In this document: piece by piece, positions 49,851 through 50,066 of the stretch
How the letters are laid out: each line of letters begins with the position of its first letter
How positions within the stretch are numbered: the first letter of the stretch is position 1
Assembly: GCA_018823285.1 (NCBI GenBank)
Contig: JAHJIQ010000063.1
Span: 399 to 64,398, forward strand
Direction of reading: 5' to 3'
From: Pseudomonadota bacterium
GTDB taxonomy: Bacteria; Desulfobacterota; Desulfobulbia; Desulfobulbales; JAGXFP01
Length of the DNA stretch: 64,000 bases
Program-made: the position numbers and the translations under genes
Notes under the pieces: model-generated
Told to the model about the DNA's origin: nothing
Database searches by the model: none
Seen by the model: only the letters and a program-made list of their open reading frames with translations

Positions 49851-50066
49851 TTATTTCAACAGGGCCAGTATTTCCTCAGGGCTCGGGAACCTGTCTGCTT
49901 TTTTTTTGGAAAAAATTTCTGCTCCATCCCTGCTGACTTCAAAAACACCGCCTGATCCTTTTACAAGCTCAATTTCTGCATCAAGGTTTCTTTTGATCTC
50001 CTCTCCCAGACCGGAAGCACGAGGCAAATAGTTTCATTGCACACAATACTCTATTGTAATTTTCAA
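49851..50066 (-). CDS. Rdx (SelW/SelT/SelH) family selenoprotein, 71 aa, absent from the ORF track
   Basis: TTG start after a GGAGGG RBS gives MKITIEYCVQ(TGA)NYLPRASGLGEEIKRNLDAEIELVKGSGGVFEVSRDGAEIFSKKKADRFPSPEEILALLK. It has a CxxU motif and the GxFEV/SK/RFP family motifs. Confidence 0.9.
49998..50036 (-). promoter_or_regulatory. Bacterial SECIS element
   Basis: The CTTCC-GGTCT-GGGAG hairpin loop starts 21 nt after the in-frame TGA. The loop sequence resembles the E. coli fdhF SECIS apex. Confidence 0.75.

Follow-up and report, generated by a model that had tools for sequence, protein, structure and literature searches.

The minus strand at 49851-50066 of the window, by which we mean the whole 64,000-nucleotide stretch of DNA analysed here, very probably carries a bona fide bacterial SelW-like (Rdx / SelT-SelW-SelH) selenoprotein gene of an uncultured Desulfobulbales-type bacterium. 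This reading is built on the structure of the gene, the family and fold of its product, the conservation of an in-frame UGA, the conservation and covariation of a hairpin located just beyond it, and the presence in the same genome of the machinery for selenocysteine (Sec) decoding. The gene is a member of a selenoprotein family that has been catalogued since 2005-2006, and identifying it is a fix to the annotation and not a discovery.

Gene structure, family and fold

The SelW-like gene (49851-50066, minus strand) consists of 71 codons followed by TAA, with a TTG start codon at 50066-50064 and the stop codon at 49853-49851. Read from 50066 down to 49851, the order of codons is TTG, 9 sense codons, TGA, 60 sense codons and TAA. 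When the TGA at 50034-50036 (codon 11) is read as Sec (U), the predicted product is a 71-aa protein, LKITIEYCVQUNYLPRASGLGEEIKRNLDAEIELVKGSGGVFEVSRDGAEIFSKKKADRFPSPEEILALLK, and the TGT codon for Cys8 (50043-50045), the resolving Cys of the CxxU redox motif, forms the sequence C-V-Q-U together with the TGA. Thus, the TGA falls exactly at the CxxU position, as the first-pass annotation of this DNA had claimed. If the TGA is instead treated as a stop, the ORF listing holds only a 58-aa tail at 49851-50027 that starts at TTG 50027.

The ribosome binding site proposed in the first-pass annotation is also present, in the form of a Shine-Dalgarno sequence, GGAGG, at 50074-50078 on the minus strand, 7 nt 5′ of the TTG start codon. 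All 30 relatives that were checked have a start codon at the aligned position (23 ATG, 4 TTG and 3 GTG), and a Shine-Dalgarno-like motif occurs no more than 15 nt from the aligned start in 22 of the 30. An upstream in-frame TTG at 50111 was considered as an alternative start and ruled out; it lacks a ribosome binding site, and the homologues begin at the position of 50066.

Profile searches with the full-length product gave scores above the cut-off for three models of the family: Pfam Rdx (PF10262), at 71.2 bits against a cut-off of 22.6 and spanning residues 2-70; the NCBIfam equivalog NF041051, “SelT/SelW/SelH family (seleno)protein”, at 97.4 bits against a cut-off of 88; and TIGR02174 (CXXU_selWTH), at 63.6 bits against a cut-off of 34.2. 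The translation and the HMM scores therefore agree with the original proposal that reading through this one TGA (50036-50034) yields a complete 71-aa Rdx/SelW-like protein, and the statement that the family was already known is correct in that an NCBI equivalog model names the protein. The family motifs were also said to persist past the TGA, and we found NYLPRAS, GSGGVFEV, FSK and RFP downstream of it in all orthologues.

The predicted fold points to the same family. An AlphaFold2 model, computed from an alignment of 40 orthologues in which Cys8 and position 11 are both invariant, has a mean pLDDT of 96.9 and a pTM of 0.84. The model contains a strand at residues 2-8, a CxxU turn and a helix at residues 14-27, such that Cys8 and position 11 lie between β1 and α1. 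The best Foldseek match was 2fa8 (TMq 0.92, rmsd 1.0 Å) and the top 21 matches were all SelW-related structures, followed by MIEN1, mouse SelW (2npb) and thioredoxins. Among solved structures, a PDB sequence search matched six bacterial SelW-related proteins and human MIEN1. Cys homologues aligning with the TGA had been suggested as a check, and this search supplied them: both printed alignments place a Cys opposite the TGA position (YCTQCNW in 2fa8 and YCTQCRW in 3dex).

The Cys-type SelW-related proteins of known structure (Agrobacterium tumefaciens Atu0228, 2fa8; Streptomyces avermitilis SAV_2001, 3dex; Pseudomonas fluorescens, 2obk; Vibrio cholerae, 2p0g) have the same fold as the product of this locus (TM 0.84-0.93, rmsd ∼1-2 Å), with 28-38% identity and the motif at the same place. 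They differ from it, however, in having CxxC rather than CxxU, in being ∼25-35 residues longer in the deposited constructs, and in not needing a SECIS element. Mouse SelW (2npb) and MIEN1 (2ljk) are more distant (TMq 0.69 and 0.79, respectively; identity ∼23-28%) but have the Rdx thioredoxin-like fold in common with the locus product. Mammalian SelW, like the product described here, has its CxxU redox motif at the β1-α1 junction, although it depends on a eukaryotic SECIS in the 3′ UTR and uses SBP2/eEFSec; the reported interactions with 14-3-3 and glutathione are features of the mammalian protein.

Conservation of the TGA and of the hairpin beyond it

In a six-frame search of 61 genomes from the same order, 47 genomes, representing 28 of 34 genera, yielded an orthologue; protein identity was 46-69%. 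Every full-length match among the 47 genomes contained exactly one in-frame TGA. In each of the 30 order relatives that were read out, the TGA lies at the asterisk in Y-C-x-x-*-N-Y. The same position was occupied by TGA in 80 of 80 further loci from other taxa, obtained in a scan of one genome per species with search patterns that did not include the TGA itself, some of which, such as NYLPRASG, may favour Sec-type members. These 80 loci came from Desulfobulbales-type MAGs, Desulfurivibrio, Acidobacteriota, Thermoanaerobaculia, Gemmatimonadota, Planctomycetota, Gammaproteobacteria, Myxococcota, Eisenbacteria and others. Among the 110 orthologous loci that were read out, none had a Cys codon in place of the TGA. 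The TGA is also kept in a ∼97% identical contig from a different (groundwater) metagenome, for which four in-gene differences were listed, three at third codon positions and one changing Leu to Ile.

One orthologue departs from the common motif. In the Planctomycetota MAG contig JAQBVK010000056.1 (∼1267-1479) the sequence reads ...SITY*GQ*NYLPRASG..., with a TGA at both CxxU positions. Either the protein has a UxxU motif or the sequence contains an error; the coverage of the contig is very low (cov 0.06 in its name).

Downstream of the TGA, the minimum free energy (MFE) structure of the RNA contains a core hairpin at 50003-50017 (minus strand) with a 5-bp stem, CUUCC/GGGAG (50017-50013 paired with 50007-50003), and an apical GGUCU loop at 50012-50008. 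Counting the U of the UGA as nt 1, the stem is formed by nt 20-24 and 30-34 and the loop by nt 25-29. The MFE structure of this sequence further includes an extended lower stem (CUC.G./.A.GAG; 49998-50023, minus strand) that is not conserved in relatives; in a set of 103 distinct sequences, only 58% retain lower-stem pair 18-36 and 61% retain pair 19-35. The distance from the UGA is 16 nt to the core stem, 10 nt to the extended stem and 21 nt to the loop. The first-pass annotation had described a SECIS-like hairpin with a GGUCU loop that starts 21 nt downstream; the hairpin and its loop stand, but 21 nt is the gap to the loop, and the core stem begins at 16 nt.

The folding energy of the 66-nt stretch was not unusual compared with shuffled sequences (z = −0.12), and because of this we did not use thermodynamics as support; the argument for the hairpin is a comparative one. 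An Rfam scan of 49000-51000 at E ≤ 10 returned no SECIS match, only chance matches to miRNA and snoRNA models. Within the order, codons +6 to +11 were the only ones with frozen synonymous sites in the 30 relatives: TCC encodes Ser(+7) in 30 of 30, Ala(+6) uses GCT or GCC only, GGA encodes Gly(+10) in 18 of 19 and GAC encodes Asp(+11) in 15 of 15. In contrast, equally conserved residues outside the hairpin (Ala −2, Ala +19, Leu and Val) have all their codons in use. The stem is 93% paired and nearly invariant within the order, with 2 compensatory cells, and the observed score was reached by 21 of 500 shuffles. Since the stem shows almost no covariation at this level, structural support depends on distant phyla.

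Across the 103 distinct sequences, which represent many phyla, the six core pairs were 90% paired compared with 77.7% after shuffling (0 of 1000 shuffles reached the observed value) and with at most 56% in slid registers. Compensatory changes were found at pair 21-33 (C-G in 57 sequences, U-A in 29 and G-C in 8) and at pair 22-32 (U-A in 35, G-C in 30, U-G in 23 and C-G in 3), a covariation that is partly entangled with amino-acid changes (Ser...Gly/Glu versus Ala...Ala) in a hairpin that is short, at 5-6 bp. In the loop, G26 is invariant (103 of 103), and 89 of the 103 sequences have U27. As read from these alignments, the protein alternates between PRASGL(G/E) and PRAAGLA, which mirrors at the coding level the U22-A/G32 versus G22-C32 pair, and through this “PRA[S/A]GL[G/E/A]” alternation the comparative data offer a clean picture of a SECIS shaping a protein.

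The textbook bacterial SECIS is that of E. coli fdhF, a hairpin within the coding region just past the UGA whose apical GGUC(U) holds the G-U recognised by SelB. Compared with the fdhF sequence (GCA-GGUC-UGC), the letters of the GGUCU loop are identical here; by our count, the loop at our locus is one codon more distant from the UGA (nt 25-29 versus 22-25), the stem is shorter, and a bulged U is not evident. Studies of the fdhF SECIS were reportedly published by Huttenhofer and Bock in 1996, by Liu et al. in 1998 and by Fourmy et al. in 2002. In bacterial SelW-like selenoprotein genes a SECIS hairpin just past the UGA has a small apical loop that contains a G, and the hairpin described here is alike in both respects. 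The stem at nt 20-24/30-34 and the loop at nt 25-29 also agree with the SECIS criterion given in PMC1088965.

Decoding of the UGA

The genome from which the window derives (3.94 Mb in 83 contigs, 97.7% complete) was expected, from the presence of this gene, to encode selA, selB, selC and selD elsewhere, and all four components were found. With C numbers denoting contigs, selA is at C31:169231 (623 bits), selB at C3:35671 (364 bits) and a canonical tRNA-Sec of 98 nt, with a UCA anticodon and G73, at C26:1561-1658 (68 bits); selD is present in three copies (376, 350 and 348 bits). Two of the selD genes (C51:8651-9580 and C35:14735-15661) are themselves selenoprotein genes, each with one in-frame TGA in the motif ARTCG*AAKIGP, and the third (C25:5759-6685) has Cys in place of Sec (GAGCAAK). 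The SECIS elements of the two Sec-type selD genes have 8-bp stems and apical loops of GGAU and GGUC at nt 25-28 after the UGA, which is the register of the loop in the SelW-like gene.

We weighed three other accounts of the TGA. If it were a genuine stop, the locus would be a pseudogene or a truncated gene from which only the 58-aa ORF at 49851-50027, or nothing, is made; standard ORF calling indeed gives only this ORF, from TTG 50027, and the database entries of relatives include 57-58-aa truncations. However, conservation within the order and between phyla extends to the TGA and the 10 codons that precede it (the start codon and MK[IV]xIxYC), and a nonsense lesion is not expected at the identical codon in all 110 orthologous loci read out. 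A 58-aa product would furthermore be deprived of β1 and of the whole CxxU of a fold predicted at pLDDT 96.9, and the ribosome binding site precedes 50066, not 50027. Because of the conservation of the TGA, we regard a pseudogene or true stop as excluded, with only a very slight chance left to it. Stop-codon usage excludes an altered genetic code in which TGA specifies Trp or Gly (tables 4 and 25) and residue 11 would not be Sec: TGA is the commonest stop in the genome and ends 1146 of 2100 long open frames, which argues that recoding at this locus is local and not a change of the genetic code. The UCA-anticodon tRNAs of the genome are tRNA-Sec-like, not tRNA-Trp or tRNA-Gly. Although several database relatives do have W at this position (CVQWNY; entries P0002-P0010), Trp is unable to stand in for a redox residue whose counterpart in the solved homologues is Cys, and the W entries are best explained by table 4 read-through on short metagenome contigs. 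We consider the likelihood of an altered code vanishingly small.

The only account still live is that the gene and its SECIS are as described but that the UGA is partly or conditionally read as Cys, for instance when selenium is scarce. Transfer RNAs of the tRNAReC type are charged by CysRS. The genome contains a second tRNA-Sec-like tRNA with a UCA anticodon at C39:14060-14152 (93 nt, discriminator U73, 59.5 bits on the Rfam tRNA-Sec model), and a 649-aa SelB paralogue begins 28 nt after it (the pair spans C39:14060-16110). The paralogue scores 313 bits on TIGR00475, with the match limited to model positions 1-358 and the extreme C-terminus, and it could, we propose, deliver Cys-tRNA to SECIS-marked UGA codons. 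In PMC13582414, tRNAReC (selC*) is defined by a length of at least 80 nt, a UCA or GCA anticodon and a discriminator U, and is said to occur in Desulfobacterota; the C39 tRNA has each of these published features. The same source states, citing Vargas-Rodriguez et al. 2018, that tRNAReC decodes UGA as Cys given a downstream SECIS, and it calls unclear how tRNASec and tRNAReC share this work. Together, the tRNAReC-like tRNA and the SelB paralogue suggest that residue 11 could sometimes be Cys. On the other hand, the same genome has a complete canonical Sec pathway, and the finding that 0 of 110 loci has a Cys codon at this position argues for Sec rather than Cys as the selected residue. We therefore judge partial or conditional Cys insertion to be unlikely, at roughly the level of a minority outcome.

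In the reading that we prefer, a SelW-like selenoprotein with Sec at position 11, translation would start at TTG 50066 and the UGA at codon 11 would not be read as a stop, owing to the SECIS hairpin 16 nt past it. This hairpin would recruit SelB carrying Sec-tRNA(Sec), and Sec would be inserted. The product is predicted to be a 71-residue thioredoxin-like protein composed of β1, the CxxU, α1, three strands and two short helices, with the Cys8/Sec11 pair at the β1-α1 junction. Because this pair would cycle between a selenol/thiol and a selenenylsulfide, the SelW-like protein may act as a small thiol-dependent oxidoreductase. Sec insertion, the redox chemistry and the nature of a physiological substrate are thus what we infer for this gene, the redox role and the substrate being drawn by analogy from the motif and the family.

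Genomic neighbourhood and annotation

Directly downstream of the selW-like gene and co-directional with it, after a gap of 86 nt, lies a gene for a 322-aa protein with an FHA domain and a class III adenylate/guanylate cyclase domain (48796-49764, minus strand; Pfam FHA and Guanylate_cyc). No terminator-like site was found on the minus strand in the 86-nt gap, and the selW-like gene and the FHA-cyclase gene are possibly on the same transcript. Upstream of the selW-like gene is an alpha-glucan phosphorylase-like gene (50879-53104), and a 93-aa ORF (50577-50858, minus strand) lies between the two. A Pfam match to this ORF was not found, but tblastn places it at the same position in 10 related loci, and for this reason it is probably a real small gene.

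An FHA-cyclase gene directly after the selW-like gene, on the same strand and with a gap of ∼20-300 nt, was found in genomes belonging to seven of the order's families. However, 17 genomes encode the SelW-like protein but not the cyclase, 7 encode the cyclase but not the SelW-like protein and one family has both genes unlinked; the pairing is absent from the other families and from the loci of other phyla. Taken together, the co-directional cyclase with no terminator before it, the arrangement in seven families and the tRNAReC/SelB-paralogue pair raise the idea that the SelW-like protein, synthesised in a Sec or a Cys form according to selenium supply, senses selenium or redox state and modulates the neighbouring cyclase. 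If true, this would couple cyclic-nucleotide signalling in Desulfobulbales to the selenium or redox status of the cell, but we think it improbable, and a lineage-specific inherited arrangement explains the adjacency as well as a functional link does.

The function of SelW-like proteins is called unclear in the literature (PMC1088965). Zhang, Gladyshev and co-workers have catalogued the bacterial SelW-like selenoproteins (PMC1088965, PMC1794560, PMC2398784). In the Sargasso Sea data these outnumbered every other selenoprotein family, at 48 genes, and had a CXXU motif (PMC1088965). Desulfotalea psychrophila belongs, we assume, to the same order as the source genome. A 2006 survey reported SelW-like selenoproteins in D. 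psychrophila, Geobacter sulfurreducens and others, and noted that SelW-like Cys homologues are few in Sec-using organisms (PMC1794560). The product of our locus belongs to the same length class of ∼70-80 aa as the bacterial SelW-like selenoproteins (PF10262; NF041051, SelTWH_Campy; TIGR02174) and has the same UGA-encoded CxxU and fold. There is no difference of substance from the catalogued proteins; the copy described here has a TTG start and, like others, was apparently missed by gene callers. The locus leaves the current understanding of Sec decoding and of the SelW family unchanged, and its value is mainly for annotation quality, as a short selenoprotein gene of the kind that is truncated or skipped by Prodigal-type callers in metagenome-assembled genomes.

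The sequence of the locus occurs in DNA metagenome runs only. The exact product was not found in a collection of 15 billion proteins, whether as the 58-aa truncation, the full-length W form or the full-length C form, which fits a gene that has not been called without proving this to be so. A word-indexed protein search returned 13 matches, all of which were W read-throughs or 57-58-aa truncations, with no Cys form among them. The expectation that pipelines would miss or shorten this gene is accordingly plausible, given that the exact products are absent and that relatives appear only as truncated or W-bearing entries. The public calls of SelW-like relatives with W at the Sec position (CVQWNY and CTSWGY) amount to a systematic mis-translation in the collection, and they were probably made with genetic code 4 on short metagenome contigs.
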